Source: Candidatus Hodarchaeota archaeon (GTDB taxonomy: Archaea; Asgardarchaeota; Lokiarchaeia; Sigyniarchaeales; SOKP01). Taken from it: 64,000 nt of DNA. Under the pieces are notes generated by a model. It ran no database searches and was not told the DNA's origin. It saw only the letters and a list, made by a program, of their open reading frames with translations. The stretch lies in NCBI GenBank assembly GCA_048887165.1, contig JBHLJZ010000008.1, forward strand, positions 2,340 through 66,339, read 5' to 3'. The position numbers were made by a program, and so were the translations under genes. Below are positions 2,417 through 27,330 of this stretch, in pieces (within the stretch, counting starts at the first letter, position 1; every line of letters begins with the position of its first letter).

Positions 2417-2555
2417 ATAAATTAATTTGCTTCATTAAATGAAAGCTTTAACTTCTCTAGGAAATCATAAACAACATTGTTAAATAAGCATTTATTAATT
2501 AGTTTTAAGTTTATTATCATATAAGAAATGAAGATGAAATTCCTTAGATGTAATT

Positions 2556-4691
2556 TTGCCTGAACGAGAAGAAAATTTAAACGAAGTATATACATTTGAA
2601 TTTTATGAAGATGATTATACGGAGACATATGACCTAAAAGAAACAAAAGTTATTGAAGAATACAATGAAATTGATTTTGAATCCGATTTAAACGATGAGC
2701 AACTCGAAATTGTTAATAATCTTAAAGGTCCAATGTTAGTAATAGCTGGTGCTGGTTCAGGTAAAACGAGAACAATTGTTTATTCTGTTGCAAAGTTGTT
2801 AGTATCAAGAGTGAAGCCTAGTGAAATCATGTTAGTCACATTCACTAATAAAGCTGCAAATGAAATGATTAAGCGAGTAGAAACTCTCCTTGGTAAAAAA
2901 CCAAAGGGAATTTGGGCTGGTACTTTTCATTCTATGGCTAATAGATTTTTACGAATGTATGCTAAGAAATTGGGATTAAAGCCAAATTACACTATTATGG
3001 ATGAAAGCGATTCGAAAACACTTATGAGATTAGCAATTGATAAAGCAAACGTAAAGGAAGTTGAAGAACGCTTTCCTACTGCTGTAGTAGCTAAAGATAT
3101 ATTATCTTTTTCTATTAATTGCAACAAATCAATTCGTGAAGTGATTCAATGGAAGTATTACCAATTTGATAGTGATCCTGTCATAATGAAACTCAGTGAA
3201 GTGTTTACAATTTACAAAAAGAAAAAAGAGCAAGATAACTTAGTTGATTTTGATGACTTATTGGTTTTTTGGAATGCACTTCTTGAGGAAAGAAATATTG
3301 CACAAATGATTGCGAGAAGAATAAAATATGTATTAGTTGATGAGTATCAAGATACAAATCATATTCAAGATGAAATAATCCATAAAATCGTTAAACAAAA
3401 TCCAAATTATAATGTTATGGTTGTTGGAGACGATGCACAGAGCATATACGCTTTTCGAGGTGCTAATTTCCAAAATATTTTAGAATTTGAGAATAAATAT
3501 CAAGATTGTCAGAGGCGTACAATAACTTATAATTATAGGAGTGTCCCTCAAATTTTAGATTTAGCAAATGATTCAATAAAGCATAACAAAAAGCAATTTA
3601 AAAAAACCATGAGACCCACTCGTCCAAAAGGTATTATACCTTTTCAAGTAAATGTGGCAGATGATAAAGATCAAGCTCGATTTATAGCAAATCAAATCTT
3701 AAAATTACGTTCGAATGGATATGCTTTGAATGAAATTGCGATTCTTGTTCGAGCAAGTCATCATTCAATGCAAATAGAGATTGAATTAAAGACAAAAAAT
3801 ATTCCTTATGAAGTGAGGGCAGGTGTTGCATTTTTTGAAAAAGCTCATATAAAAGATATGATTGCACACCTCAGAGTCATTGAAAATCCTTATGATGAAA
3901 TTTCTTGGTCTCGAATTTTTAGCATTATACCTGGAATAGGTAAAATTTCTGGTACAAAATTATTTGAAGCTATTGCCAAAACACCTAGTCCAATAAACCA
4001 TTTGGTAAGCAAAACTTTTGCTTATGAAAAAGATAAAGTATCTCGAATTTCAAAAGAAGCGAAAAAAAACACAATAGCTCATGTAAAAAATTTGTTAGGA
4101 CTTTCAATTGAAGACAATCCTGGTGATATTATTAAAAAATTAATTCCAATTCTTGAAGATCATTTACAATCTAAATACGATAATTGGAAAGATAGAATTG
4201 ATGATTTAGAACAACTTGCTGTTTACTCCCAAAACTTTACTAATCTTCGAAATTTCTTAGAAAACTTAAGTCTAAATTTATCAAATTTGGAATCTAAAAC
4301 AGTTCAATTAGGAGACCAAACCGAGGAAGAAAAACCACTTGTGATTTCGACTATTCATCGTGCAAAAGGTCTTGAATGGCGCGTTATTTTCATTCCAATG
4401 CTTTGTGAAGACTCGTTTCCTTCCAGCAGGGTATTGGGTGATCCCGAATCTTATGAAGAGGAGAGAAGAGTATTTTATGTGGCAATTACGAGAGCTAAAG
4501 ACCTACTGTATTTAATATCACCAGCAGTTATTCATACTTATAGAGGACTTCAAACGGTTCGATTATCTCAATTCGTCGCGGAATTAAACCCTAAAATATA
4601 TACTAAGTCTTCAGTTCAATTTAAATCAAAAAGAAGAAAAAAAGCAACAATTCTAAAAGCCAATTTTAAAACAGCTAATGACTTGCTTTAA
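2556..4691 (+). CDS. UvrD/PcrA/Rep-type superfamily 1 DNA helicase
   Basis: SF1 motifs are present: AGAGSGKT (I), VDEYQDTN (II), VGDDAQSIYAFRGA (III), STIHRAKGLEW (V/VI region) and VAITRAKDLLYL. TTG start in the track. Confidence 0.9.
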   Translation: MPEREENLNEVYTFEFYEDDYTETYDLKETKVIEEYNEIDFESDLNDEQLEIVNNLKGPMLVIAGAGSGKTRTIVYSVAKLLVSRVKPSEIMLVTFTNKAANEMIKRVETLLGKKPKGIWAGTFHSMANRFLRMYAKKLGLKPNYTIMDESDSKTLMRLAIDKANVKEVEERFPTAVVAKDILSFSINCNKSIREVIQWKYYQFDSDPVIMKLSEVFTIYKKKKEQDNLVDFDDLLVFWNALLEERNIAQMIARRIKYVLVDEYQDTNHIQDEIIHKIVKQNPNYNVMVVGDDAQSIYAFRGANFQNILEFENKYQDCQRRTITYNYRSVPQILDLANDSIKHNKKQFKKTMRPTRPKGIIPFQVNVADDKDQARFIANQILKLRSNGYALNEIAILVRASHHSMQIEIELKTKNIPYEVRAGVAFFEKAHIKDMIAHLRVIENPYDEISWSRIFSIIPGIGKISGTKLFEAIAKTPSPINHLVSKTFAYEKDKVSRISKEAKKNTIAHVKNLLGLSIEDNPGDIIKKLIPILEDHLQSKYDNWKDRIDDLEQLAVYSQNFTNLRNFLENLSLNLSNLESKTVQLGDQTEEEKPLVISTIHRAKGLEWRVIFIPMLCEDSFPSSRVLGDPESYEEERRVFYVAITRAKDLLYLISPAVIHTYRGLQTVRLSQFVAELNPKIYTKSSVQFKSKRRKKATILKANFKTANDLL

Positions 4692-9904: not shown

Positions 9905-11719
9905 TTATTTAAGTTTAGAAAGTATCATTGTTTGATTAATTTGATCTTTATAATGCTCAAGAGACTTAAAATTATCATTTGAAATAGTGTGTCGGATTTT
10001 TAAAATATCTGCTATGAAATCTTTTCCTAATAATTTTTCAATCGAAACATCTTGTTCTAAGAGATCTTTACCTATTTTATAAATTAATAAAAATATTTTA
10101 ATCATTCCAAGTAGCTTTTTAACATTCGTATAGTTATCAATAGAATCATAAGCACTTTGAATCAAAAATCCATTTTTAATTAAATTAGAGATTAAAAGGA
10201 TTAACTTTTGATCTTCAGATAAGTTCCTTTCTCCAATTAGTTGTATAACTTGCATAAGATCTTGCTCTTGAGACAATATTTCATTAACTTTTTCTCTGCA
10301 TTCCATCCAATTAATGTTAATTTCAGACCAATAAATATCTTGTTCATTCCACCATTTTTCAATATATTCTGGATAATTCGAATAAGAGTTAAACCAGTTA
10401 ATTGCTGGATAGTGTTTTAAGTATGCTAATTTTGGATCTAATGCTAAGAAGACTTGAACGACTCTTTTTGTTATTGCCGTTACAGGCTCATTGAAGTCAC
10501 CTGCTGGAGGAGATATTGTACCTATAATAGTTATAGAACCTTTTCTTTCATTTCCTAATTTGTCTTTTCCTAATGTTTCAATAATTCCTGCTCGTTCATA
10601 GAAACTTGAAAGTTTTGATTGCAAATATGAAGGGTATCCTTCCTCAGCAGGCATTTCTCCCAATAAACCAGAAATTTCTCTTAGCGATTCTGCCCATCGA
10701 GATGTACTATCTGCTAAAACAGCTACATTATATCCCATATCTCGATAATATTCTGCTATAGTTACCCCTGAAAATAAACTAGCTTCCCTAGCGGAAACAG
10801 GCATATTCGATGTGTTCGCAACAAGGATAATGCGTTCTAAGATAGGATGATTAGTTCTTGGATCTATTATCTCCGAAAACTGTTTTAATGTGTTTGCGAT
10901 TTCATTACCTGGTTCTCCACAACCTATGAAAATAATAATATCAGCATCAGACCATTTTGCCAAAGATTGTTGAAGGACAGTTTTACCTGTTCCAAAACCT
11001 CCAGGGATAGTAGTAGTACCCCCTTTTGCAATTGGAAATAATAAATCGATTACTCGGATTCCTGTAATTAGAGGTTCAAAAGGTTGGATTTTTTTTTTAT
11101 AAGGTCTTTTTTTTGTAATAGGCCATTTTTGCATCATTGTAAAAGAAGCTTCTCCATCTTGATTTTTTAATTTATATATCTCTTCGTCTATTGTATAATC
11201 ACCTTCTTCAGCGATAAAAATTAAATTACCAAATTGTTTAGGAGGGATCATTATTTTATGTGTTATTAGGGAAGTTTCTTGCACAATCCCAATTACATCT
11301 CCGTTGCTAACTTTGTCATTCAAATGCTTTAAAGGGATAAAATGCCATTTTTTAGTTCTAGATAATGAAGGGAACCGCACTCCTCTATTTAACCATCCAG
11401 ATTTATTGTTCATAAAAATCTTTTTTAGCGGTCTTTGAATTCCATCAAATGTATTCCCTAAAAGCCCAGGTGCTAATTCCATAGAAAGAGGTTCATTTAA
11501 ACTTATGACTCTTTCATTGAGTTTAACTTTAAGAGTACCTTCAAAACACTGAGCAATGATATAATCTGAATATATTTGGATTACTTCTCCTAGGATATTA
11601 TGGCCCATAATTTTTATTAGATCATTTAATTGAACATGATTTTCTAATCCTCTTATTTTTATAATAGATCCAAAAATCTCAGATATGTAGCCATATGTAG
11701 CATTTTCAATAGATTCCAT
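9905..11719 (-). CDS. A-type ATP synthase subunit A paralog (second copy, GEPGNE variant)
   Basis: Full-length (604 aa) homolog of the A subunit, with Walker [25 protein letters not shown] and [16 protein letters not shown]. It carries [11 protein letters not shown] where copy 1 and canonical A subunits have GERGNE. Confidence 0.9.
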
Positions 11720-11741
11720 TATATTTTTACCTCACCATATT

Positions 11742-12173
11742 TTAACTTTGGATTATTTTCCCACATTGGGGACATTTTTTAGAGAAACTGGACAGGATCA
11801 TACCACATTTACTGCATTTATGAATTAATGGTTTACGATAATTGAATTCTAAGCTAATATTAGTAGTATTTTTCTTTTGTGTTGGTTCAATTTTTTGATT
11901 TAAAAGCTCTTTATATCTTTGGTAATCACCCTTAACTGGTTTTTTTCTACTTTGAAATAGTTTTGAAAGTTTTTCAGTACCAGCAACTATTAATCCAGAA
12001 ACCACTAAAAAGAGAAAAACTAAAATTATCACTACTACAATCGGATTATTTTCAATCTTGATTAAAATAAAATACAAATAAAAAAGAAAGATGGTATAAA
12101 GTATTAAAAAACTAACTTTAAATAATTTAAGCTTTTTCGACTTGGTTTTTTGTTTAATTTCCGATTGAATCAT
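11742..12173 (-). CDS. membrane-anchored zinc-ribbon protein (143 aa)
   Basis: Two N-terminal hydrophobic helices, a basic linker and a C-terminal CSKCG-x12-CPQCG four-Cys ribbon. It sits between atpI and the second atpA copy with 32-nt and 22-nt gaps. Confidence 0.6.
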   Translation of the reverse strand: MIQSEIKQKTKSKKLKLFKVSFLILYTIFLFYLYFILIKIENNPIVVVIILVFLFLVVSGLIVAGTEKLSKLFQSRKKPVKGDYQRYKELLNQKIEPTQKKNTTNISLEFNYRKPLIHKCSKCGMILSSFSKKCPQCGKIIQS

Positions 12174-12205
12174 AATAGTAAATCTAGTGCATTTTTTAAA
12201 GATAT

Positions 12206-14539
12206 TTAGGCCTTTTTAAAGAATTTATCCTCAATAAGGCTAATTGCCTCATCAATTACTTCTTTCGCCTTTTTTGGTTCAATTTCTTTCTCAATTTCTT
12301 CAGAAATTATATCCCTACTAATTTCTTTTTTGAAAGTTATGATGGAATAAGTTTCATCTAAATAGAATGGAAAAAATTCTGTTCCTGATCCTTTATAAAA
12401 TTTAAAGAAAAATTCATAAAAATGTAACCTTATTGTATTAATAAAAACTAAAATGCCTTCTAATAAGATAACTACTAGGTTCCCAAAGATTAAACCTATA
12501 ACTCTAAAAATTTCAATTACAATTCCCTCACCTTGTAAAATACCTATCATAGTCTGAATTGAAATCATCAATGCAATATGAACAAGCGCTAAAGCTAATA
12601 ACCTTATATAAGAAGCAACATTGCTTAGCACAGATAATACTGTTTCAAACGTCTGTATTGAGCCTTCACCAATTAAAGCTCCAAAAGACTCCTTTTTTAG
12701 ATATGATACTCCTAATAAACGCCCAAGAGGTCTTAAAATTATTAATAGAATCCCTGGGATAATAACTAATAAGATAGGTGGTGGTAGCGGGATCGGTCCC
12801 CATAAAGTAACTAAGTATGTTGGCGATAACCAAACGGTAAAATTTATACCATATGTGAATATTAAAATCGCGCCACCTGTTATAAAAAATATTTTCATAA
12901 GTGAATTAGAAAATGAAAGGTATTTTTTGGACTGCTTCCAATAATTTATAAACTCTATAATCCAACCCATGTCAATGTGCACAACTCCTATAAATAAAGT
13001 AAACATAAACACTGACATAATATTATTTATAGGATCATATAAATTAATTGAGCCTAATAAGGGTAAAAAGAATGGAACTGGTTGCAGGTGGATTCCGAAC
13101 ATCATTTCTGAGCCAAAAAATTCGCCGTAGAGAAAACCTCCCAAAACTGCTCCAAATCCACAGTATAAAATTATCCAACTAAAATTTCGAATAGCCTTCC
13201 TTTTTCTAAAAATTACCCCTCCTATAAATCCGGCTATTATTAAACTTAATCCATGACCAATGTCTCCAAACATTAATCCAAAAAGCAAAGGAAAAGTAAT
13301 TGCAAGAAACGGAGTCGGATCTATTTCAGAATAAGAAGGAGTTCCATACATTTTTGTCAGAGTCTCAAATGGACGAAAAAACCATCTATTTTTCATAATG
13401 GTGGGAGTATTGGATATTATATCATCATTTACATTTTCTTTAGTCTTTCCTTTTTTATCTTTAAGATCCTTTATAGCTGAAATATCCTTATGTTCAAGCT
13501 TTTCAATTTCTTCTTTTTTAATTGATTTATATTTTGGTATATTTAATGATTCAATTATGATTTTATCTTTAAAATTTTTAATCAAATTCTGTTCTACATT
13601 CTTTTTATCGCGAGAAGGAACGAAAAATTTTAAAGAGAGACGATCAGATGATGTTTTTTCGAATTGTTGCTCTGCCCAATAATATTCCTCAACATTTTGA
13701 ACAATTTCATTGATTGCAGCAAATTTATACAAATTATCATCCTTTAATCTTAACCTTTCTTTTTCATATTTAGAAAGAGTATTTTCGATAATTTTTAACT
13801 CACTATTAATCCTAGAAAAATTAATACCCTCTGAAGTCAAATACTTTTTGAGAATTGGCACTTCTTCAGCGAATATTAACTTTATCCTTTCATTTAATTC
13901 TTCCTCTTTTTCAATTGGATATATTATGAAAAAGATTGTTCTATCTTCAACTTTATAAGCATTTGGAAAAAGTTCATCAGTTTGGTATACATTTGGAAAA
14001 GATTGAAAATCAAACAACAGTTTTAAATTATCCAAATTTTTAGAGAACGTTGAATAGACTCGAAAATTCAATTTATTTAGATCACTTAAACTACTCCTAC
14101 TTAAATTAAATTGTTCAAGAAAGGTGTAGCTAGTTTTTATTAGTTGAACATTTTCAAGTTCAATTTTTGCTTTTGCAATATATCTATCTAATTCATTAAT
14201 TCTATTAGTATAGTAAATTATTTCTTCCTTAACGGTGCCGATAAGTTCATTTATATCATCTACAACAAATTCGATTCTTTTTTCCTTTTCAACTTTTTTT
14301 AGACTTGAGAAAGTTGATTCTGAAATCTGGATTTTGTTGAATAATTCATTTAAGTCGCGTCTTAAATTTTTAATAGCACCTAATAATACGTCCTTTTCTT
14401 CTATTTCCTTTCTTTCTTGAAAAATTTTTTTTGATTTTATGTGAATGTTATTAATATCAGAAAGTTGGTTTAGTAGAGCATCTTTATAATTGTAATTAAT
14501 AACTACATTAAACAATGACATCTCGGTTTTTTGAGGCAT
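12206..14539 (-). CDS. atpI: A-type ATP synthase subunit I (stator a-subunit homolog)
   Basis: 777 aa. It has a long N-terminal cytoplasmic coiled-coil half and a C-terminal polytopic membrane half containing the conserved YIRLLALALVH segment (essential Arg region). Confidence 0.85.
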   Translation of the reverse strand: MPQKTEMSLFNVVINYNYKDALLNQLSDINNIHIKSKKIFQERKEIEEKDVLLGAIKNLRRDLNELFNKIQISESTFSSLKKVEKEKRIEFVVDDINELIGTVKEEIIYYTNRINELDRYIAKAKIELENVQLIKTSYTFLEQFNLSRSSLSDLNKLNFRVYSTFSKNLDNLKLLFDFQSFPNVYQTDELFPNAYKVEDRTIFFIIYPIEKEEELNERIKLIFAEEVPILKKYLTSEGINFSRINSELKIIENTLSKYEKERLRLKDDNLYKFAAINEIVQNVEEYYWAEQQFEKTSSDRLSLKFFVPSRDKKNVEQNLIKNFKDKIIIESLNIPKYKSIKKEEIEKLEHKDISAIKDLKDKKGKTKENVNDDIISNTPTIMKNRWFFRPFETLTKMYGTPSYSEIDPTPFLAITFPLLFGLMFGDIGHGLSLIIAGFIGGVIFRKRKAIRNFSWIILYCGFGAVLGGFLYGEFFGSEMMFGIHLQPVPFFLPLLGSINLYDPINNIMSVFMFTLFIGVVHIDMGWIIEFINYWKQSKKYLSFSNSLMKIFFITGGAILIFTYGINFTVWLSPTYLVTLWGPIPLPPPILLVIIPGILLIILRPLGRLLGVSYLKKESFGALIGEGSIQTFETVLSVLSNVASYIRLLALALVHIALMISIQTMIGILQGEGIVIEIFRVIGLIFGNLVVILLEGILVFINTIRLHFYEFFFKFYKGSGTEFFPFYLDETYSIITFKKEISRDIISEEIEKEIEPKKAKEVIDEAISLIEDKFFKKA

Positions 14540-14550
14540 TAGATCACATC

Positions 14551-15210
14551 CTATACTTTACTTATTTCCTTTTTTTGAATAAGATCCTTAGTCTTTTTCA
14601 ACCTAACAAAATTTTCTCTATCGTTTTCTTCTAAAATTTCTCTAATCTTTTTAATATCTGCTATTAGTCTGGGAATAATTATGTTTTTCAAACCATTTAT
14701 TCTACGAGTAATCCTATTAAAATAATGGACAAATTTAATAAATAAATCTTCCTTTTCAGCTAACTTTATTAAACTTTCGAAAAAATTTTCTAAGATAAAC
14801 GTAAGATCATCAAGAAAATGACTTGAATTCTCAAAAGAGTATGCTGGTAATTTATCTTTCCGATCTAAGTCATAACTTATTTCACTGGAAGGGATTCCAA
14901 TTCGCTTGGTATGTTTTAAATTAATTGAAGGTTTATATTGAATTTTACTAATACTACTAATCAATACTAAATCCCTTTTTCCCATCTCTTTATAGGTTTT
15001 GTTTAAATTAATCAAAGAGTTTTTGTATAAATTCATAAATTTATTAAAGACTGATTGATATTCATAATATCTATTTTTAATTTGTGACATTAACTGTTCT
15101 TGTTTAAATTCTAAAAATTTCTTCCCTCTTACAGCAAAATTTAATCTTTTTTGAAGATTTATCAAGTTCGTTTTTGTAGGTTTTAATTCTCTAAAACTAA
15201 TTGTTCTCAC
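14551..15210 (-). CDS. atpD: A-type ATP synthase subunit D (central stalk)
   Basis: N-terminal KPTKTNLINLQKRLNFAVRGKKFLEFK is the typical V/A-type D start. Size (219 aa) and position after atpB also fit. Confidence 0.85.
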   Translation of the reverse strand: MRTISFRELKPTKTNLINLQKRLNFAVRGKKFLEFKQEQLMSQIKNRYYEYQSVFNKFMNLYKNSLINLNKTYKEMGKRDLVLISSISKIQYKPSINLKHTKRIGIPSSEISYDLDRKDKLPAYSFENSSHFLDDLTFILENFFESLIKLAEKEDLFIKFVHYFNRITRRINGLKNIIIPRLIADIKKIREILEENDRENFVRLKKTKDLIQKKEISKV

Positions 15211-16599
15211 CTACTCTCTGTAATACTTATCAATAAATTCTTGATGAATGCGAAATAATAAATTCTTTGGTAAATTTGACAAAACCTCCCAAGCTCTTGA
15301 AAATGATTCATTTAAATTTCTATTGTCGAGAAAGTCTTGATTTAAAAATTTTTGTTCAAAATCTTCACCAAATCGTAATAAAGCTTTCTGGTCAAAATTA
15401 AGTCCATCTTCCCCTACAACAGCAAGAAGATCTCTCACTTCAAGAGCGCTAGAGTAAGATGCTAATAATTGTGAACTTAAATCGGCATGATCCTCTCTAG
15501 TTGTACCACTTCCTATAGCATCTTTCATTAATCTTGAAATTGAAGCTAAAACTCCGATAGGAGGATATATTCCCTTCTTATATAAATCTCGATTGAGCAC
15601 TATTTGACCTTCAGTGATGTATCCAGAAGTATCTGGGATTGGGTGAGAAATGTCATCATTTGGCATGGTTAAAATTGGGATTTGGGTTATAGTTCCAGTC
15701 TTACCCTTGATCTTTCCAGTTCTTTCATATATTGATGCGAGATCGGAATACAAATACCCCGGATATCCTTTCCTGCTAGGAATCTCTTCTTTCGCAGAAC
15801 TTAATTCTCTTAATGCTTCAGCGTAATTCGTCATATCAATTAAAATTACAAGAACATGCATATCTTTTTCAAAAGCAAAATATTCAGCAGTAGTTAAAGC
15901 CACCCTTGGAATAATTAGCCTTTCCATTATTGGATCAGATGCAAAATTAAAAAATGAAATAATATTAAGAATATTTCCACTTTCTTGAAAGCTTTTTATG
16001 AAGTTAATAGCATTATCTTCAATGATTCCAATACCACAAAAAATTATTAAGAATGGTTCTTCAGTTAGAACTTTAGCTTGTGTTACAATTTGAGTAGCCA
16101 ATCTATTATGCGGGAGCCCTTGACCACTGAATATTGGAAGTTTTTGTCCTCTTATAAGAGTAAAAAGACCATCAATGCTGCTTATACCTGTTTGGATTAC
16201 CTCTGAAGGATAATCTCTAGCATAGGGATTTATTGGAGCACCAAATATGTCTCGTTCTTCTGTTGTTATTATTTTTGAATTTAGAACTTTTTTAGTTTCG
16301 ATATCAATCGGTTCACCTAAAGAATTAAAAATTCTTCCAAACATATCATTATCAGAAATTCTGATTTTAAAAGAATCTTCTGTGAAAAATATCTTAGAAT
16401 TTTCAGCTGATATTCCTTTTGTATCTTCAAATACTTCTAATATTATCATATCTTCATTAATCTTCAATACTTGTCCATTACGAATAGAACCATCTTCTCC
16501 TTCAATCCTGACAAATTCTCCGTATTGAACATCATGATTATTCTTTAAAAATAATAAAGGTCCAATAATTTGCTGAACTTTTCTATAAATTGTACTCAT
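15211..16599 (-). CDS. atpB: A-type ATP synthase subunit B
   Basis: 462 aa with a degenerate P-loop region (FSGQGLPHN) and the conserved blocks [20 protein letters not shown] and [20 protein letters not shown]. Its start makes an ATGA overlap with the atpA stop. Confidence 0.95.
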
Positions 16600-18434
16600 T
16601 TTTTACTTCTGACTCCATAAAGAATTTTAAGAGATTCAATTTCTTGTAGTAGCTTCTCTTTAATATTATCAATCTTATCAAATTCATTATTAGGGATACG
16701 ATTATTAATTCTGATTATTTCATTTATAATCTGAAGGTTCTTGATATCTTCGAGAAGAAATCCTTGTTTTAGAATTTTTTTTCCCTCATTATATAGTAGA
16801 AGAATTAATTTTATGTGTCCTAGAAGCTTCTTCGCATCAGTATAACCATCGATAGTATCAAACGCATTTTGAATAAGAAAGCTTTCTCGAATCACTTTTG
16901 CTATAAATAAAATTAACTGTTGTTCTTCAGGTAAATTTTCTTCTCCAATTAATTGAACTATATTAATCAGGTTTTGCTCTTTAGACAAGATCTCTTCTAC
17001 ATAATTTCTACATTGGTACCAATCCAAATCCATTTCTACCCAATCAATATCTCTTTCAAACCACCAATCAGAAATATAGTCAGGATAGTTAGAATAGGAA
17101 TTCAGCCAATTTACAGCGGGATAATGTTTTGAATATGCTAACCGAGCATCTAATGCCCAAAATGCTTGAACAAAGCGTTTAGTTGTCGAAGTTACAGGTT
17201 CGCTAAAATCTCCGGCAGGTGGGGAAACAGAGCCTATTATGGTTATTGATCCATAATTTTTTTTATCAGAATTGGAATTACCTAGTGTTTTTATAACACC
17301 AGCTCGTTCGTAGAAACTTGAAAGCTTAGAGGGAAGATATGCCGGATATCCCTCCTCTGCAGGCATTTCTTCTAATAATCCTGAAATTTCTCTTAAAGAT
17401 TCAGCCCATCGAGAAGTACTATCAGCTAAAACAGCTACATCATAACCCATATCCCTATAATATTCAGCTATAGTAACTCCTGAAAAAATACTTGCCTCGC
17501 GTGCTGAAACTGGCATATTTGACGTATTTGCGATTAAAACAATCCTTTCTAATAATGGTCTTCCTGTTCTAGGATCTATAATTTCAGAAAATTCTTTTAA
17601 TACATCAGCGATTTCATTTCCTCTCTCCCCACATCCAACAAATACTACTATATCAGCATCACACCACTTAGCTAGAGATTGTTGTATAACCGTTTTTCCA
17701 GTACCAAAGCCACCAGGGACAGCAACAGTCCCTCCTTTTGCTATAGGAAATAATAAATCGATTACTCTTATTCCCGTTAATAAGGGTTCACTCGGAATAA
17801 TTCTTGCTTTATGAGGTCTAGCTTTTGTAACAGGCCACCTTTGTATCAGATTAAAAGATTTTTCTTGGTTTTGATATGATAAACGATAAATTTCATCAAT
17901 GACAGTATATTCTCCCTTTTCAGCAATGTAAGTTACTTTACCTGAGCTTACTGGTACTAATATTTTATGAACAATAGATGGAGTTTCTTGAACTGTTCCA
18001 ATAGTATCTCCAATATTAACTGCATCTCCTATTTTTTTGGTAGGTGTGAAATTCCATTTTTTCGTTCTAGAAAGGGAGGGTATTTCTAATCCACGTGATA
18101 TAAAACCTATTCCTTCAGATGATTTAAAAGCTTGATCTAAGGGTCTTTGAATTCCATCAAATACACTAGCTAATAGTCCTGGGCCTAATTCCATTGATAA
18201 AGGTTCATTTAGATATAACACTTCATCATTTAGCTTCAAATTATTCGTATTTTCATAACATTGAGCAACTACGTGGTTAGCATAAATTTGAATTATTTCT
18301 CCTAGAATTTGATAAGAAGAAACTTTAATTAAATCATGGAGTTTAACTTTGCTTTCTAAACCTTTTATCTCTATAAGAGTACCATTGATTGCCGAAATTA
18401 TGCCTGTATCATTATTCTTTTTAGATTCAATCAT
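16596..18434 (-). CDS. atpA: A-type ATP synthase catalytic subunit A
   Basis: 612 aa with Walker [11 protein letters not shown], the canonical GCGERGNEI motif, [30 protein letters not shown], and the non-homologous insert region typical of A subunits. Confidence 0.95.
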
Positions 18435-19002
18435 ACGTCCTTAAATGCTCCTTGATATCAAGTTTTTTATTTCGAATAAATTTTTCAAAACTAAGTTGCA
18501 TCTCTTTGATTTCTGACTCTGAAAAGATCTTTGAAAACTCTTTCTCAATGAGGATGCTTTTTTTTTGTAGTAAATTATCAATTGTATAGTCATATGACAT
18601 GTTGATACTATTTTGGAAAACTTTGAAACCACCAATAAATTCATCATTAGACTTGAGAATTTCAACCTTATTTTTAAATAAATCTTGAATATGATTAGGA
18701 TTGGTTTTAAAATAATCATAATCCTTAGAATTTAGACTAATCGATATTTTTGGGGGCTTATCAATTATCGAAATTACTTTTTTAAAAATTGAAATTAAAT
18801 ATTTTGTATATTTTGAATAATTTTTAGATATTTTATTTCTAATACTAGTTTCAAGCGCACTATATAATTGTTCTATTAGATTCCGTTTTAATTGAAGTAT
18901 TTCATCTTTTACTTTTGATAAGGTTTCTGAAAGAGTATTATTCAAAAATTGATCATAAGTTTCTATAAAATGATTTTTTATTCTAAGAGAATTCTCATCC
19001 AT
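18427..19002 (-). CDS. atpE: A-type ATP synthase subunit E (peripheral stalk); true start probably upstream of the first ATG
   Basis: Position before atpA, a helical N-terminal half and a globular C-terminal half. The frame stays open 53 codons upstream and encodes an E-like IIEEAEKKVKEI helix, with no ATG/GTG/TTG (see finding). Confidence 0.7.
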   Translation of the reverse strand: MDENSLRIKNHFIETYDQFLNNTLSETLSKVKDEILQLKRNLIEQLYSALETSIRNKISKNYSKYTKYLISIFKKVISIIDKPPKISISLNSKDYDYFKTNPNHIQDLFKNKVEILKSNDEFIGGFKVFQNSINMSYDYTIDNLLQKKSILIEKEFSKIFSESEIKEMQLSFEKFIRNKKLDIKEHLRTYD

Positions 19003-19161: not shown

Positions 19162-19479
19162 TTAAATAATTTGGTTAATAAATTTGAAAATTTTTGCCAT
19201 AATTTTGTTTTGTTGTTCGATATCAGTTGTAAAGACATCTGGTACATAAAACACAAATGGTTTTTTATTATTTAATTTAAAATCAAATAAATATTCGATC
19301 TCATTTTCTGGTAAATTTAAAGCTACAATGATCATTCCAATTGAAGAGTCTTTAATCAATCTATCAAACTCTTTGGAGAATTGTTCTGTATTCTCAATAA
19401 TCTTTCCTTCAATTCCTAATAAACCCATTAATAAAACGAATTCCTCATATCCTAATACAAATATTTTTTGATTAAACAT
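19162..19479 (-). CDS. atpF: A-type ATP synthase subunit F
   Basis: 105 aa with a flavodoxin-like pattern (KIFVLGYEEFVLLMGLLGIEG...IGMIIV) typical of V/A-type F. Operon position also fits. Confidence 0.7.
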   Translation of the reverse strand: MFNQKIFVLGYEEFVLLMGLLGIEGKIIENTEQFSKEFDRLIKDSSIGMIIVALNLPENEIEYLFDFKLNNKKPFVFYVPDVFTTDIEQQNKIMAKIFKFINQII

Positions 19480-19789
19480 TGAAATTCAGCCCAGCTTTAG
19501 TTATTATTTCTTCAATTAATTCTTCCATTTTTCTTTCATAATTAGATTTAACTAGCTTTAATTTTGATTCTAATTTTTCTTTAAAAATTCTGATTTCTTC
19601 TTTAGTTTCTTTATTAAGTGATTTTAGGACTTCTTTAACATTATTTTGTTTTGTTTGTATAGAATCCTCCAAAAATTTTTCCTGCTCTTTACGGAAGGTT
19701 TGAATTTCAATTAAACTTTCTTCCTTTGCTTTCTCAATTAAATCTTCATAAACTTTTTCAATATCTTTTATCCATTCAAAAATCTTCAT
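19472..19789 (-). CDS. atpH: A-type ATP synthase subunit H-like small coiled-coil stalk protein
   Basis: 105-aa all-helical E/K-rich protein that overlaps both neighbours inside the operon. Assignment rests on size and position. Confidence 0.5.
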   Translation of the reverse strand: MKIFEWIKDIEKVYEDLIEKAKEESLIEIQTFRKEQEKFLEDSIQTKQNNVKEVLKSLNKETKEEIRIFKEKLESKLKLVKSNYERKMEELIEEIITKAGLNFNV

Positions 19790-20855
19790 CTAATAAATTT
19801 AGCCTCTCATAATTTTCATGAATAATTCTAACAATATGCGGCATTATTATGAATTTAATTTCTTTATCTTTTTTAATTATTAACTCCAGAATACTGTAGA
19901 TCGTTGAATACTCTATATCATCAATCTTCATTTTAAATTTTTTGAAGTAATATGCTTGGTAAATTCCCTCTAATGACCATCTTATATGCTCCCTTTTAAA
20001 CTGAATTGGTATAAAGAAGGCTTTCAACTCTTTTTTATTTTGCAGATAGCTAGCAATCTCTGAAATAAAAGTATCAATATTTGTGAGATTAAGCAATGAT
20101 CCAATCTTTTCTTTGTTAAAAAAAAGATATTCATCTACTAACATTTGAGAAAGTAATTTTCTTTCGATATTATCCTTAATTCCTCTATAAATTAATCGTA
20201 GATTATAAATCTCAACCACATATTTGATAAATAAATTTATCATTTCAGTTTCTTTTTTAGAATATATCTTTTCACTCTTTATTAAATTTTCATAATATAA
20301 TTTATCCAAAAAAGCTTCTAAAACAAAAATTTCTCCGGTGTTTTTAAAATATAAAATTCCTTCTCTTATAGCTTTGTTATATATAGTTTTTTTCACGAAT
20401 AGTTGAATTTCACTTAAAGATGTAATCTCTAATAACTTTTTAATGAAGTCTGAATGATCTAAATAATCTTCGACTAGAAAATTGATCCTCTTATACTTTT
20501 GTTTCATATCCATGCCAGCAATTAGCCCAAGGATAATTTGCTTAATGTTATTAATTTCAAATTTTAAAAGTAAAGACCTTATAAATCTTCTCATATTTTC
20601 AGGTGATACAAACATAATTTTTCCCATCAATTTTATATAGACATGAAAAAGAGCTTGTTCGATTTCGATAATTAAATAATTTTTAATGTCTATTTCTGGA
20701 TAATATGGGGTGATGACTTCTATAAACTCTTTTATATCTTTTATTTTTTTCAACTTTTTTAAAGATGCCTCATCTATTAGTAAATTTTTTAAAAAATTTA
20801 CTTTGATATACGTATAAGCATAAGATGGAATAATTATACTCGTTGAAAACACCAA
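19776..20855 (-). CDS. atpC: A-type ATP synthase subunit C (V-type d homolog)
   Basis: 359-aa helical protein between atpK and the stalk genes. Length and internal two-fold helical repeat character fit subunit C. Confidence 0.75.
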   Translation of the reverse strand: MVFSTSIIIPSYAYTYIKVNFLKNLLIDEASLKKLKKIKDIKEFIEVITPYYPEIDIKNYLIIEIEQALFHVYIKLMGKIMFVSPENMRRFIRSLLLKFEINNIKQIILGLIAGMDMKQKYKRINFLVEDYLDHSDFIKKLLEITSLSEIQLFVKKTIYNKAIREGILYFKNTGEIFVLEAFLDKLYYENLIKSEKIYSKKETEMINLFIKYVVEIYNLRLIYRGIKDNIERKLLSQMLVDEYLFFNKEKIGSLLNLTNIDTFISEIASYLQNKKELKAFFIPIQFKREHIRWSLEGIYQAYYFKKFKMKIDDIEYSTIYSILELIIKKDKEIKFIIMPHIVRIIHENYERLNLLDEDF

Positions 20856-20887: not shown

Positions 20888-21262
20888 TTATGCTGGTAAT
20901 GATGGTATTTTTGTCCATAGTAGAATAGCTACAATAAGGCCATAAATTGCTAACGCTTCGGCTAACGCAACAACTAAAAAAGCCTTAAAAAATGCTTCTT
21001 CTCTTTCTGAAAGAGATGAAATTGCTGCTGTTCCAACAGTTTTTATTGCCCATGCGCTCCCTAATACGGACGCACTTACAGAAATTCCAGCAGCAATAGC
21101 TAATAATGCGGATGTAAAAGAATTATAGTAATCATAAATATCAGTTTGTGCTGCAGCAAAAGTTATAAGTCCGTCTACTGTTAAATAAACTGTAGCTATT
21201 AAAATTAACTGGAAAATTCCAAGTAGCAAATAAAATTTTTTCTTTCCGTTCAAATTTTTCAC
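20888..21262 (-). CDS. atpK: A-type ATP synthase proteolipid subunit K (c subunit)
   Basis: Gly/Ala-rich helical hairpin (AIAAGISVSASVLGSAWAIKTVG ... FLVVALAEALAIYGLIVAILL) with the carboxylate in the second helix. There is an extra N-terminal hydrophobic helix, and the start is GTG. Confidence 0.85.
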   Translation of the reverse strand: MKNLNGKKKFYLLLGIFQLILIATVYLTVDGLITFAAAQTDIYDYYNSFTSALLAIAAGISVSASVLGSAWAIKTVGTAAISSLSEREEAFFKAFLVVALAEALAIYGLIVAILLWTKIPSLPA

Positions 21263-21391: not shown

Positions 21392-22054
21392 TTATTGATA
21401 TAATAAAACTCTTATAACATCAGCAATATCATGGATCCGGTCAGCTAACTGCTCTAATAAAACAATACTATCTCTTAACCGTAAGAGTAATCGAATATTT
21501 AAATCTTGTTCGGATGTTGAATATAAATAGTCTAGAAATTGTCTATATGTTTTGTCGATATCATTTTCAAGTTCGTGAATAGTAACTGTATTTTTATATA
21601 CCTCATCAGGATTGTCTCTTAAATTTTTTATTGTAGTTTTCAATACATCCGTCATTTCAATAATTTGATTAATTAATTTGTCATATCTTTTTTTAATTTC
21701 TTCATATTTTAGATCAATTAAATTTATTTTATCCAACATATCCACAAATTCAAGTGGATAATTTATTACATTATCCAATCTTAAAATTAATGCTACGTAA
21801 TCACCTACGAAAGTTCCAGTTTCCGAAAAGTTCTGAATTATCTGAATTTTAAGTTCATCAGCTTCTTCTTCAGCTAATTGCATTTTACTCCTTTTTTTCT
21901 CAAAACTTTTTTTATTGGATTCGAAATCTTTTGACCATTTGGAATAATACACACCCATATCACTTATAACAGAATATACAATTCTAACATGTTCCATTAA
22001 CATTGCAATAATTTCTTGTTTAATCTTTCTGTTAGACGACATTTTAAAATTCAC
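21392..22054 (-). CDS. DUF47 / PhoU-like helical protein
   Basis: Two repeats of the E-x-x-x-D helical signature (AEEEADELK, HELENDIDKTY) and a C-terminal LEQLADRIHDIADVI, consistent with the PhoU_div family. Confidence 0.5.
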   Translation of the reverse strand: MNFKMSSNRKIKQEIIAMLMEHVRIVYSVISDMGVYYSKWSKDFESNKKSFEKKRSKMQLAEEEADELKIQIIQNFSETGTFVGDYVALILRLDNVINYPLEFVDMLDKINLIDLKYEEIKKRYDKLINQIIEMTDVLKTTIKNLRDNPDEVYKNTVTIHELENDIDKTYRQFLDYLYSTSEQDLNIRLLLRLRDSIVLLEQLADRIHDIADVIRVLLYQ

Positions 22055-22217: not shown

Positions 22218-23060
22218 TTGCAATCTACTTTTAGGAAAATTTTTGATCCAAGGTGCTATTTAAATAAAATGGAATTAAGAAGCATTTTTAAGAGATGGCG
22301 GAAATACTCAGAGATGTCTGAGTTAGGTATTATCGCCCGTCGAAAATTTTTTAATAATTGTTTTGACGGGGCTTTAACCTGTGCTGGAATAGTAAGTGGA
22401 GTTTTTGTTTTGTTTTTAGCGGGTTTAAGTCAAAACACTCCTGGAAGTATAGTAGTTTTAGGATTTTCAACGGCACTAGCTATTGGTATTAGTGGTTTAT
22501 GGGGTGCTTTTCTTTCGGAAGAAGCAGAAAGAAAGAAAAAAATAATTGATCTGAAAAAAGAGATGGTAATTCTTGAAGAATTAGAAGATGACGATGATAT
22601 TGATGCGTTAGAAAAGAAAAAGTTAGAATTAGCAAAAAAGATATTGGAAGAAAAAGAAATCCAGAAAGCTATGGTTATTCCAATTAAGAATAATGGTTTA
22701 AAGAAGGAAAAGAGTATTTTAATTCCAATTAAAATGCAGAAAACTAAATTAAAAAAAAACAAAACTATGATTGAACAAGCAGAAAATTTTGCCACAATTA
22801 TAGCCTCTTTAGTTGATGGTGGCGCTCCTGCTTTAGGATCTACGCTTCCATTAATTCCTTTTTTCTTTGGTTCCGAGTTAGTTTTACTTCATTTTATTTT
22901 CTCTTATCTCATTTTAGTTGGATTATTAGTCTATTTAGGCATATTTTTAGGGAATATTTCTGGACAGGGTCGAATAAAATATGCTACACATCTTGTAACA
23001 GCTGGAATTGTTACGCTTATTGTATCATTATTATTAAGTATGGCAACAGGAAATTTCTAA
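22218..23060 (+). CDS. VIT1/CCC1-like membrane protein (paralog 1)
   Basis: RRKFFNNCFDGALTCAGIVSGVF N-terminal motif, a central Glu/Lys-rich cytoplasmic segment, and C-terminal TM helices with GGAPALGSTLPLIPFF. Paralogous to the next gene. Confidence 0.45.
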   Translation: MQSTFRKIFDPRCYLNKMELRSIFKRWRKYSEMSELGIIARRKFFNNCFDGALTCAGIVSGVFVLFLAGLSQNTPGSIVVLGFSTALAIGISGLWGAFLSEEAERKKKIIDLKKEMVILEELEDDDDIDALEKKKLELAKKILEEKEIQKAMVIPIKNNGLKKEKSILIPIKMQKTKLKKNKTMIEQAENFATIIASLVDGGAPALGSTLPLIPFFFGSELVLLHFIFSYLILVGLLVYLGIFLGNISGQGRIKYATHLVTAGIVTLIVSLLLSMATGNF

Positions 23061-23156: not shown

Positions 23157-23870
23157 ATGTTAGATAAAATTAGAACGTATGCAAGAATAAGTAATTTATG
23201 GCCAATAGCTCGTCGTTATTTTGTGAATAATTTTTATGATGGGATGCTCACTGTTTTAGGAATATTATTAGGATTTTTTATAATTATTATTAAAGGAAAC
23301 CAAAACTCAATTGAAAGTAATTTAGTTATATTAACCGGAATAGGATCTTCAATATCAATGTTTATTTCAGGATTATCAGGATCTTATTTATCAGAAAGGG
23401 CAGAACAAAAGAAATTGAAGAAGGAATTGGAAAAAGCGATGGCTCTAAGTGATCTTGAATTTGATAATACCGATCCATTTTTAGAATTAAATGAAATTGA
23501 AAAAGCAATGCTGAAAAAAATTAAAAGAAGAAGATTACTTAGAAAGAAAGCTTTATTTGATGATAATAATAATAAAAAGAAATCTAAAACTATTCAAGAT
23601 AAAGCTGAACAATTTGCGATTTTAGTAGTATCCTTTGTTAATGGAACTTCTCCTTTTTTAGGTGGAATTGTACCATTAATTCCATTTTTTCTTGTTCTAA
23701 CTGCTGGTATTATGACTTTTATTTATTCTTTTTTAATAATTTTACTATGCATTATTTTACTGGGAATATTTTTAGGAACCGTCTCAAAAGAATCAATTAT
23801 TAAAAATATAATTCAGATGGTCGTTGCATTTCTCATAACAATTTTAATCTCATTATTATTACTACGATAA
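23157..23870 (+). CDS. VIT1/CCC1-like membrane protein (paralog 2)
   Basis: RRYFVNNFYDGMLTVLGILLGFF, SGSYLSERAEQKK and FVNGTSPFLGGIVPLIPFF. Same architecture as 22218..23060. Confidence 0.45.
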   Translation: MLDKIRTYARISNLWPIARRYFVNNFYDGMLTVLGILLGFFIIIIKGNQNSIESNLVILTGIGSSISMFISGLSGSYLSERAEQKKLKKELEKAMALSDLEFDNTDPFLELNEIEKAMLKKIKRRRLLRKKALFDDNNNKKKSKTIQDKAEQFAILVVSFVNGTSPFLGGIVPLIPFFLVLTAGIMTFIYSFLIILLCIILLGIFLGTVSKESIIKNIIQMVVAFLITILISLLLLR

Positions 23871-24834: not shown

Positions 24835-25971
24835 ATGAATGATCTTGAACTCTTATCGAATTTTTCTTTATTTTTGAAAGAAAAGAAAGAAAAAGGAGTT
24901 AAAATTATCGCTTTTTTAGCACACGATAATATTCCAGAAGAATTATTAGATGCAGCAGGGTTTTTTCCATTAAGGTTAATATTTGGAGGAAATGACGATT
25001 TAATGAATGCTAGTCATGATTATCTACCACCATCTACGTGTGCTTTTGCTCAAACTTGTATAGGTTTGTTTTCAATTAAACCTGCTCAATTTGATTTTTT
25101 AGATTTAATTGACTATTTTATTGTTTCAAATCATTGTGTATCTGATATATGTGCGTCTGAAATTATTTCAAAATATTACAATATACCTAGATTAGACTTC
25201 TATGTACCATATACTAATAATAAAAACAGTTCAGATTATTTCAAATTAGAGTTAAGGGATTTAAAGCAAAAATTAGAAGAAATTATTAAGAAAGAAGTTG
25301 ATAATGAATCTATTTTTGATAGCATTAAAAAGTATAACAATTTTAAAAAAAAACTTTCAGAAATTAATAGTTTAGAAATAACCGGTTCGGAAAAATTAAA
25401 GGTTATTCAAAAAGCACTTTTATATGGACCTTCTTTTCTTTTAGAATTAGAACAGTATATAGAAAAAAATATATCAAATCCAATAGAAAAAATTGAAGAT
25501 TCTAAGAATGTCCTAATTACTGGATGCTCGATTTTTATTAATGATTATTTGATTGAATTGATTGAAGACGGAGGAGGAAATATTGTTTTTTTTGATACTT
25601 GGATTGGAAATCATTATTATTCGCAAATATTGGAGGAGGAGATGATAAATACTATTAAAGATCCATTAGATCTCTTAGTTTATAGATTTGAAAATAATCG
25701 TTATGGAGATCATTCAGTACCTAACTTTTTAGAGAATAAACTATTACTAATCGAAAAATATTATCAAAGTTATAAACAAAAGACAGGAAAAGGATTAGGA
25801 ATAATAAATCATATAATAAAATTCTGTGATCACATCTCATTAATGTCCAGTTACTTGAAAGAACGGTTACAGAAACAAGGTATAAGGGTTTTGAATTTAG
25901 AAAGAGATTATTCAAGAGCTAATCGAGGTCAACTTTCAACTAGAATAGAAGCATTTTTGGAGATGATATAA
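24835..25971 (+). CDS. 2-hydroxyacyl-CoA dehydratase family subunit (HgdB-size, 378 aa)
   Basis: Sits immediately after the activase. Has the conserved N-terminal pattern (IIAFLAHDNIPEELLDAAGFFPLRL) and Cys-containing segments, and its length matches the small subunit. Confidence 0.75.
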   Translation: MNDLELLSNFSLFLKEKKEKGVKIIAFLAHDNIPEELLDAAGFFPLRLIFGGNDDLMNASHDYLPPSTCAFAQTCIGLFSIKPAQFDFLDLIDYFIVSNHCVSDICASEIISKYYNIPRLDFYVPYTNNKNSSDYFKLELRDLKQKLEEIIKKEVDNESIFDSIKKYNNFKKKLSEINSLEITGSEKLKVIQKALLYGPSFLLELEQYIEKNISNPIEKIEDSKNVLITGCSIFINDYLIELIEDGGGNIVFFDTWIGNHYYSQILEEEMINTIKDPLDLLVYRFENNRYGDHSVPNFLENKLLLIEKYYQSYKQKTGKGLGIINHIIKFCDHISLMSSYLKERLQKQGIRVLNLERDYSRANRGQLSTRIEAFLEMI

Positions 25972-25974
25972 AAG

Positions 25975-27330
25975 ATGAGTTTAATAGCAGATGAAATTAT
26001 TCGATTTAGTTCTGTATTAAAAATTGCATATAATCTTTTAGCAGGTAGGAATTATTTGAAAAGAAAGAAATTTCGGGAAAAGGAAAAATTAGTAGCTGTC
26101 GCTTTACCCTTTTCTGATCTACCTTTTGCAGCTGGTGCTGTCCCTGTATTTCCAATTAGAATGCATATATTTGAGATAAATAAGTATTTGGCATATTTGG
26201 GTTCCGCATCAAGCATATTTGGATGGGAAAGTGTTTCGAATTTTTTAGGATTTGTTAAAAATTTGGGAATTCAAGAAATCAGTAAAATTGTAGACGATAT
26301 CATTGAAGATGTAATTGACACAATCAATAAAAAGTACAATGAGATGTATGACCTTGGAATTGAAGGTGGTGTTTCAAGTGATTTTTGCTATGGATTAAAA
26401 AGCTTAACAGGAATGCATATTACTAAAGGCCGTAATGTAGATGCTTGCTTTAATGTAACAATTAGATGCAGCGCATATAATAAATATTTGGAGTCTTTAA
26501 AAGCTATTAATTCTGAGCCTAAACAAATTTGGGTTGATATTCCACCAAGAAATATTGGAAATTCTTTGGAATTATTGACAAATAATATTTCAAATGCTTT
26601 AAAGGAGCTGGAAAATTTAACCGGAAACACATTAACTGATAATCGACTTCGAGATTTTTTCAAAATTGGTAATCAAATAAAAAGAGATTATAAGACCATA
26701 ATATATGAAATTAGTGCTTCTGATTTCTATCCCTGCAATCCGGCAACCTTTAGTGAAATTTTATCATTACTTAGTATTACATTTCAGGATTATAACTCCA
26801 ACGCTTCTAGATATCGAGATAATATGAGTTCATTAGTAAAGGAAATGAAGGAGAGAATTCGAAAAGGAATTGGAATGGACGTTTCTAAAATGCCTCGGAT
26901 CTTAGTTACTCCTATGTTTGGAGGTTGGGAACCCAAAAGTCATGAAATCATATATGAACTTGGTGGTCGAGCTTTATATGCTGATTGGGAAATACTGAAA
27001 TTATTAGAAGAAATTAATGTATCAACTCATGCAAATCCAGTAGAAGAGTATGCTCGATTCCTTCTAAATGCTACTGAAACAGGTATAGGTTGTGATAATG
27101 ATACTTTAACAAATTCATATTTAAGAATGGCTAAAGATTTAAGCGCTGATGGACTTGTTTTCTTTCAGTTATTTGGATGTCACTCTATTTCAAATTGTTA
27201 TTCGATGTTGAGGGAAAAAATTCGTCGTGATTTAGAAATACCAACTACTTCCATAACATTCAATAAAATTGGCGAAAATGTAGAGCAAGTAAAAACCCGC
27301 TTAGGAGCTTTTATGGAGATGTTTAAGTAG
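25975..27330 (+). CDS. 2-hydroxyacyl-CoA dehydratase family subunit (HgdA-size, 451 aa)
   Basis: Starts 4 nt after the previous stop. Has the VPVFPIRM motif, conserved Cys in CYG, RCS, PCNP, GCD and GCHS contexts, and fits the HgdA/HgdB/BcrBC superfamily pattern. Confidence 0.75.
   Translation: MSLIADEIIRFSSVLKIAYNLLAGRNYLKRKKFREKEKLVAVALPFSDLPFAAGAVPVFPIRMHIFEINKYLAYLGSASSIFGWESVSNFLGFVKNLGIQEISKIVDDIIEDVIDTINKKYNEMYDLGIEGGVSSDFCYGLKSLTGMHITKGRNVDACFNVTIRCSAYNKYLESLKAINSEPKQIWVDIPPRNIGNSLELLTNNISNALKELENLTGNTLTDNRLRDFFKIGNQIKRDYKTIIYEISASDFYPCNPATFSEILSLLSITFQDYNSNASRYRDNMSSLVKEMKERIRKGIGMDVSKMPRILVTPMFGGWEPKSHEIIYELGGRALYADWEILKLLEEINVSTHANPVEEYARFLLNATETGIGCDNDTLTNSYLRMAKDLSADGLVFFQLFGCHSISNCYSMLREKIRRDLEIPTTSITFNKIGENVEQVKTRLGAFMEMFK

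Follow-up and report, generated by a model that had tools for sequence, protein, structure and literature searches.

Few enzymes have been studied as thoroughly as rotary ATPases, and their catalytic subunits are taken to carry an invariant arginine in the GER motif. Subunit B of A/V-type enzymes and subunit alpha of F-type enzymes have lost catalysis and serve a structural or allosteric function in the hexamer, and small membrane accessories of rotary ATPases include bacterial AtpI/UncI and the e, f and Voa1/Ac45 proteins of the eukaryotic V-ATPase. We know of no rotary-ATPase accessory protein with a cytoplasmic zinc ribbon. Here we analyze an A-type ATP synthase operon of a Candidatus Hodarchaeota archaeon (assembly GCA_048887165.1, contig JBHLJZ010000008.1, positions 2,340 to 66,339 of the forward strand; this whole stretch of 64,000 nucleotides is the window, and positions below are counted from its first letter). 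The operon encodes a canonical catalytic A subunit, A1, and ends with two additional genes: one for a 143-amino-acid membrane zinc-ribbon protein, ZnR, and one for a second full-length A subunit, A2, in which the GER arginine is replaced by proline.

Two described enzymes define what is expected of this arginine. In Enterococcus hirae V1, residue A-Arg262, part of an 'arm' formed by residues 261-275, grips the gamma-phosphate in the tight state together with Lys238 and the B-Arg350 finger (PMC5095293), and from the numbering offset and the stated arm position we infer that Arg262 is the arginine of GERGNE. In Escherichia coli F1, Gln and Lys mutants of betaArg-182 make no ATP, retain low ATPase activity and lose binding of inorganic phosphate (Pi), betaR182Q also loses transition-state formation, and betaArg-182 has no part in MgADP binding (PMC3268026). 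The E. hirae study agrees with a preliminary description of this DNA, which had proposed contact between this arginine and the gamma-phosphate. The betaR182Q/K alleles remove the same GER residue that is missing from A2 and supply the expected A2 phenotype, but they are engineered alleles of a sole catalytic subunit, whereas A2 is a natural extra copy beside wild-type A1 in which selection has fixed the proline. A Methanospirillum locus (L056), a possible example of the whole-operon A/V-ATPase duplications of other archaea, likewise places two A genes in one genome, but both of its copies keep GCGERGNE, whereas in the Asgard operon A2 lost the arginine, only A was duplicated and a new membrane protein was added.

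Results

A2 is encoded on the minus strand at 9905..11719 (604 amino acids), behind the ZnR gene at 11742..12173 on the same strand, and A1 is encoded at 16596..18434, also on the minus strand and identified from its open reading frame (ORF) and its Pfam and NCBIfam matches. The two A proteins align end to end with 369 of 599 residues identical (62%), and A2 is only about 25-28% identical to B. Their DNA is 66% identical with a longest shared run of 22 nucleotides, and this low identity and shortness of shared runs identify A2 as the product of an old duplication rather than of an assembly error. A2 contains four Pfam domains, all also found in A1 (PF02874, PF16886, PF00006 and PF22919), in a fold order of N-terminal beta-barrel, barrel-sandwich insert, alpha/beta nucleotide-binding domain and V/A C-terminal domain. 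The NCBIfam subfamily model NF003220 matches A2 with 738 bits (cut-off 470) compared to only 129 bits for the B model NF003235, while the equivalog model TIGR01043 gives 718 bits for A2 and 768 bits for A1, both below its cut-off of 972, and does not discriminate between the copies. Compared with the A subunit of Pyrococcus horikoshii (PDB 1VDZ/3M4Y; NF003220/TIGR01043), which it matches with an E-value of 3e-175, A2 is alike in its four domains, length, Walker A motif and catalytic glutamate. It is unlike a canonical A subunit in being a second copy at the operon end, after a membrane zinc-ribbon gene and without its own B or D.

The defining difference lies in a single catalytic motif. The Walker A motif (GGFGTGKT) and the catalytic glutamate of GCGE are intact in window A2 and in all A2 homologues, but the arginine of GER(GNE), a defining feature of A subunits, is replaced in A2 by Pro270 (GCGEPGNE codons 10901..10924, minus strand; Pro270 codon 10910-10912 by translation). 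In a HMMER alignment this proline falls exactly on the arginine of GCGERGNE in the solved P. horikoshii A subunits, where its counterpart is residue 264 by offset; canonical archaeal A subunits carry the GERGNE arginine and every A2 carries proline instead. The main claims of the preliminary description thus hold for the protein itself: a full-length, diverged and old second A subunit that keeps Walker A and the catalytic glutamate and has proline on the GERGNE arginine. Like A2, A/V-type B and F-type alpha are paralogues of the catalytic subunit with its fold and nucleotide-binding domain. The translated window B subunit, however, reads GIGIIEDN where A reads GCGERGNE and has lost both the glutamate and the arginine of GER, whereas A2 has lost the arginine only and kept Walker A. 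On sequence grounds A2 is a member of the subunit-A family that lacks one of the family's defining catalytic features; it is not a B-type subunit, since it retains the glutamate and Walker A and prefers the A models, and it would represent a third type of head subunit, much younger than B.

We next asked how widely the arginine-to-proline switch is fixed, taking the best 120 database matches to window A2 as a sample of the family. One match, from an Asgard metagenome-assembled genome (MAG) labelled Hodarchaeota by NCBI, is 100% identical to window A2. Proline is present in 110 of the 120 (GCGEPGNE in 106, ACGEPGNE or GCGEPDNE in 4), and the remaining 10 read GCGERGNE and occupy the A1 position wherever their context was checked. 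Arginine is invariant in 74/74 A-subunit ORFs from 73 unrelated non-Asgard bacterial and archaeal genomes, and it is present in 99/99 representatives of 50%-identity clusters with a recognizable motif, a set in which the clustering merges A1 and A2 and eukaryotic A subunits are not clearly among the representatives listed. An alignment of 114 A2, 20 Asgard A1 and 37 outgroup sequences contains 72 columns that are at least 95% conserved in A1 and outgroups. A2 retains 69 of these 72 universally conserved A-subunit columns, and the sole complete switch among them is arginine to proline, found in all 114 A2 sequences. Five more A2-specific changes are all conservative (V90, N276, L315, T401 and L434), and no new basic residue has been gained in A2. 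The preliminary description had also attached significance to LLGEMP in window A2, a point we reject: the variant occurs in only 6 of the 120 best matches, which are the closest relatives of window A2, another A-type representative reads RLAEMP with alanine at this variable position, and the change is lineage-specific and not diagnostic.

ZnR is built from a basic N-terminus, two hydrophobic helices and a C-terminal CSKCG-x9-CPQCG motif; the two transmembrane helices and the ribbon had been recognized before, and recounting corrects the reported x12 spacing to x9. A single-sequence search recovered 4 relatives, and a profile search extended the family to at least 160 clusters of 136-172 amino acids that carry no functional names and are mostly unnamed or 'hypothetical protein'. 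The pattern C120-x2-C123-x10-C134-x2-C137 is invariant in 57 homologues, and other invariant or near-invariant positions are S70 and F73 within an LYSRMFP-like motif just after helix 2, Y112/I117 preceding the ribbon, and F130. An AlphaFold2 (AF2) model built from the 57 sequences (overall predicted local distance difference test score, pLDDT, 75; predicted template modelling score, pTM, 0.38) contains a helical hairpin formed by residues 4-40 and 44-63 (pLDDT 84-90) and, beyond a linker of low confidence, a small ribbon of short strands at the C-terminus (pLDDT 82-89). The basic N-terminus and a basic segment after the second helix suggest an orientation in which the ribbon faces the cytoplasm, on the side of the A1 head. 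ZnR fits no Pfam or NCBIfam family, with its Pfam zinc-ribbon match (Zn_Ribbon_1 and relatives) reaching 21.7 bits under a cut-off of 25, and a Foldseek comparison of the model with the Protein Data Bank returned generic ribbons only, none at E <= 0.001. Like AtpI/UncI and V-ATPase e, f and Voa1/Ac45, ZnR is a small membrane protein beside the membrane sector and outside the core rotor and stator, but it has no sequence or fold similarity to AtpI/UncI or V-ATPase e, f or Voa1 in Pfam, NCBIfam or Foldseek comparisons.

The two genes are fixed together at the operon end across relatives. The order PhoU_div-K-C-H-F-E-A1-B-D-I-ZnR-A2 recurs in loci L002, L003, L084, L086, L087 and L088, where A2 is followed by a convergent tRNA-intron endonuclease gene and then Memo, a coiled-coil protein and PfkB; the operons of L085 and L089 are closely similar, for 8 MAG loci altogether. 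In the complete 3.34 Mb genome CP070831.1 the operon is split, with E-A1-B-D at 2.19 Mb (L007) and I-ZnR-A2 at 3.05 Mb (L001); the two pieces lie ~0.86 Mb apart and K, C, H and F adjoin neither. For a broader survey we searched metagenomes with a degenerate DNA pattern for GCGEPGNE, which matched at least 120 stretches. At least 74 of these lie in A-type genes on contigs of 26-41% GC (median 31%), and the remaining 46, which come mainly from high-GC contigs (39-71%) and lack an A-like gene, were rejected as chance matches. Among the 51 metagenomic A2 genes that have 500 nucleotides or more of upstream sequence, 50 are directly preceded by ZnR (49 called by tblastn and one, L113, by eye); subunit I is upstream in 34/34 genes with at least 1.5 kb, and an arginine-type A1 lies ~6.7 kb upstream in 10 of 11 genes with at least 7.2 kb. 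The exception to ZnR adjacency, L167 (1694-2428), is an A2-type fragment that lacks the N-terminus and loses its frame downstream of GEPGNE; its contig has 41% GC and carries an unrelated neighbor gene, and the case is probably one of a chimeric contig or a pseudogene. A2 is therefore not the 'orphan' that it had first been called, but a member of a large and ancient family fixed at the operon end.

Two related operons indicate how the module is layered. L009 (13876-16848) encodes I followed by ZnR with no A2 at that locus, and L008 (13900-16107) has neither ZnR nor A2 after I. These patterns are nested, such that A2 implies ZnR and ZnR implies I, and demonstrate that the module is not universal among related low-GC Asgard operons. 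The presence of ZnR without A2 in L009 suggests that ZnR probably serves the I/Ao sector in the first place and is more than a partner of A2. Subunit I of L009 is 842 amino acids long, with a Lys/Glu-rich insertion of roughly 100 residues. These related loci, among them L083, L084 and L086 at 28-30% GC, have 27-30% GC overall and shared synteny, yet their NCBI labels range over Loki, Thor, Odin, Hod and Heimdall; since labels this mixed despite the same synteny are unreliable, we name the group 'low-GC, Loki-type Asgard archaea'. One such record, L006, is labelled as a Nanopelagicaceae bacterium.

To compare rates of change, we used eight genomes that each encode both A1 and A2. Mean orthologue identity is 71.0% among A2 and 74.8% among A1 proteins, and by domain the A2 and A1 values are 63% and 68% for the N-terminal barrel, 66% and 65% for the bulge, 83% and 86% for the nucleotide-binding domain, and 60% and 68.5% for the C-terminal domain. 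Sequence identities of this order place A2 under strong purifying selection, at a pace of change about as slow as that of A1. The preliminary description had raised both a conserved pairing of A2 with a zinc-ribbon gene and decay of a duplicate; the pair is found across many relatives under strong purifying selection, and decay is not borne out.

Outside the L089 lineage, A1 and A2 are 61-70% identical in protein, but in L089 (10001-11827 and 16664-18457) identity reaches 82% in protein and 85% in DNA, and third-position identity at identical residues is 0.79 compared to 0.58 in the window. This pattern suggests gene conversion or re-duplication in L089. The L089 copies still differ at R/P, I/L(315), S/T(401) and S/L(434), a pattern expected if selection maintains just these residues as the functional difference between the copies. 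A neighbor-joining (NJ) tree, the A-subunit phylogeny called for in the preliminary description, joins Asgard A1 and A2 in 100/100 bootstraps but recovers A2 alone in 12/100, a weak support that we attribute to gene conversion in the L089 lineage. The best explanation of these sequence data is that A2 arose by duplication inside the low-GC, Loki-type Asgard archaea.

In the window, all operon genes lie on the minus strand. Downstream of the PhoU_div/DUF47 gene at the operon head (21392..22054, PF01865), the operon encodes subunits K (20888-21262), C (19776-20855), H (19472-19789, a 105-amino-acid ORF with a weak V-ATPase_G-like, G/H-like Pfam match), F (19162-19479) and E (18427-19002), each assigned with Pfam, then A1, B (15211-16599, PF00006/PF22919), D (14551-15210, PF01813) and I (12206..14539, PF01496; the a-type stator/ion channel subunit), followed by ZnR after 32 nucleotides and A2 after a further 22 nucleotides in the window ORF list. 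The ORF list and Pfam give one set each of B, D and stalk genes at this locus, in agreement with the single complete operon set and the spacings first reported, with H as the weak match. The I-ZnR spacer (12173-12205, minus strand) holds TTTAAAAA ~19-26 nucleotides before the ZnR ATG, which may represent the TATA box of a leaderless archaeal transcript or simply AT-rich DNA, and the ZnR-A2 spacer (11720-11741, minus strand) holds a Shine-Dalgarno-like GGTGAGG element ~12 nucleotides before the A2 ATG. A scan for sigma-70 promoters and terminators found sites no commoner than in shuffled sequence and is not applicable to archaea, and a scan of the window for tRNA and Rfam elements found none.

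Several observations concern the operon surroundings. The PhoU_div/DUF47 gene stands directly upstream of K in the window and in the same position in L002, L004-L006, L084, L086 and L088, and its product, a phosphate-regulator-like protein, is apparently tied to the ATPase operon in this group of archaea. Between A2 and the endonuclease gene, three loci contain a radical-SAM/SPASM gene, a protein of roughly 445 amino acids of unknown function and several ORFs of 80-106 amino acids (L002 13432-18066, L086 12466-15584 and L088 12488-17246), an insert that may be a cassette similar to those for ribosomally synthesized and post-translationally modified peptides (RiPPs). In L083 an IS605 OrfB/TnpB (Cas12f-like) gene (2486-3787) occupies the same interval, directly downstream of A2. 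On the plus strand of the window lie a tandem pair of VIT1-family (iron/manganese transporter-like) genes at 22218-23060 and 23157-23870, and after them a pair of 2-hydroxyglutaryl-CoA dehydratase D-component genes at 24835-27330.

Discussion

Our analysis favors a composite reading, which we regard as evenly balanced between being right and being wrong, in which A2 is a selected, non-catalytic paralogue of A that shares B, D and the stalks with A1, and ZnR is a new membrane accessory. Near-A1 constraint on all contact domains, together with the lack of a second B or D, argues for A2 in the A position of the hexamer, where it would either join A1 in the same A3B3 head or form an alternative A2-B head on the same Ao. 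By analogy with betaR182, the A2 site would still bind nucleotide, probably MgADP, but not Pi, and would provide no transition-state stabilization and no turnover. A site without turnover would stall ATP-driven rotation, so the simplest role would be that of a hydrolysis brake or a nucleotide-sensing regulatory site; A2 could act as a built-in brake, for example stopping wasteful ATP hydrolysis, or as a regulatory nucleotide sensor. ZnR would be a new accessory membrane subunit beside I whose cytoplasmic ribbon recruits or anchors A2-bearing heads. A more specific and tentative proposal, which we think somewhat unlikely as it stands, is a mixed or switchable head in which an arginine-less third class of subunit, delivered or anchored by ZnR beside I, locks, gates or senses the nucleotide state. 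We also considered a 'gear-shift', with an inactive site increasing the ion/ATP ratio, and rejected it on thermodynamic grounds, as each productive 120-degree step needs the same driving force.

Several observations count against A2 as a non-catalytic head subunit served by ZnR. The C-terminal domain of A2 is somewhat less constrained than that of A1 (60% compared to 68.5%), and the NJ tree does not support strict A2 monophyly (12/100). The replacement is a wholly invariant proline and not just any non-basic residue, which hints at a specific new property rather than mere loss. If A2 merely replaced A1, strict adjacency to ZnR would need nothing beyond operon history, and with ZnR but no A2 in L009 and neither gene in L008, the role of ZnR may be independent of A2. 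The hedged interpretation in the preliminary description, of A2 as an altered or regulatory head subunit or a partner of ZnR, still stands, but L009 speaks against ZnR serving A2 alone.

The same evidence can be read in other ways. A2 might work outside the rotary head, held by ZnR at the membrane beside I, where it would serve in monomeric or oligomeric form to sense nucleotides, to assist assembly as a chaperone or to park the Ao sector. The near-absolute ZnR-A2 adjacency (50/51), the finding of ZnR without A2 (L009) but never of A2 without ZnR, the intact I-ZnR-A2 block in the fragmented operon of CP070831.1 and the resemblance of the ribbon only to small protein-binding ribbons in Foldseek all speak for such a role. 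We nevertheless judge it unlikely, because the barrel, bulge and nucleotide-binding domain that make the B and stalk contacts in A1 are equally conserved in A2, the 69 of 72 universal residues kept are hard to explain for a protein outside the hexamer, and no ZnR-A2 fusion occurs among the 120 A2-type and 120 ZnR matches listed.

Loss of the arginine need not mean loss of activity: A2 could be a working, condition-dependent catalytic isoform with altered kinetics, substrate or direction (slow or synthesis-biased), in which another group replaces the arginine. The pocket is otherwise preserved, with the Walker A Lys/Thr and the glutamate in place, A2 orthologues share 83% identity in the nucleotide-binding domain, and four further fixed conservative A2-specific changes (I265, L315, T401 and L434) suggest a pocket that is retuned and not abandoned. 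This possibility is improbable in our view, since A2 gained no basic residue, the arginine is invariant in every other A subunit sampled, and in F1 Pi binding, transition-state formation and synthesis all depend on the homologous arginine, with no rescue of synthesis by Lys (PMC3268026). The absence of a partner B or D gene and the lost catalytic residue could also mark A2 as a duplicate in decay, a product of faulty assembly or binning, or a recent functionless accident of one lineage. Intact full-length ORFs with the same proline in more than 100 sequence clusters and at least 74 metagenomic contigs, a rate of change near that of A1, conserved synteny and window copies just 66% identical in DNA make this explanation hardly credible.

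Full-text literature searches recovered no description of A2 or ZnR, although literature coverage is incomplete and an earlier description is possible; searches for the GEPGNE-type motif string returned no relevant paper, and those for Asgard ATPase paralogues, second copies and A3B3 returned nothing relevant. In the passages of an ATP synthase phylogeny paper that concern Asgard archaea, duplication and paralogues, no Asgard A paralogue is mentioned (PMC10656485). The initial impression that this arrangement is not a described one therefore agrees with the literature searched, in which no paper on an A2-type isoform was found. In current annotation the genes appear as 'V-type ATP synthase subunit A' and 'hypothetical protein', and phylogenies of single-copy markers or of ATPases could mix A1 with A2.

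These archaea are energy-starved sediment dwellers and relatives of the eukaryotic host lineage, and the eukaryotic V-ATPase is elaborately regulated. Throughout a clade, strong selection has preserved a second A subunit that lacks the GER arginine, together with a new membrane zinc-ribbon protein, and A2 and ZnR point to an undescribed built-in regulator of a rotary ATPase. Such a module would imply that the energy machinery of sediment archaea is regulated or assembled at a level not recognized so far, and it offers a concrete handle on the evolution of head-subunit specialization and of A/V-ATPase regulation. If the mixed or switchable head proposed above is real, it would amount to regulated control of the V-ATPase kind in a prokaryote, within the lineage from which eukaryotes obtained their V-ATPase.

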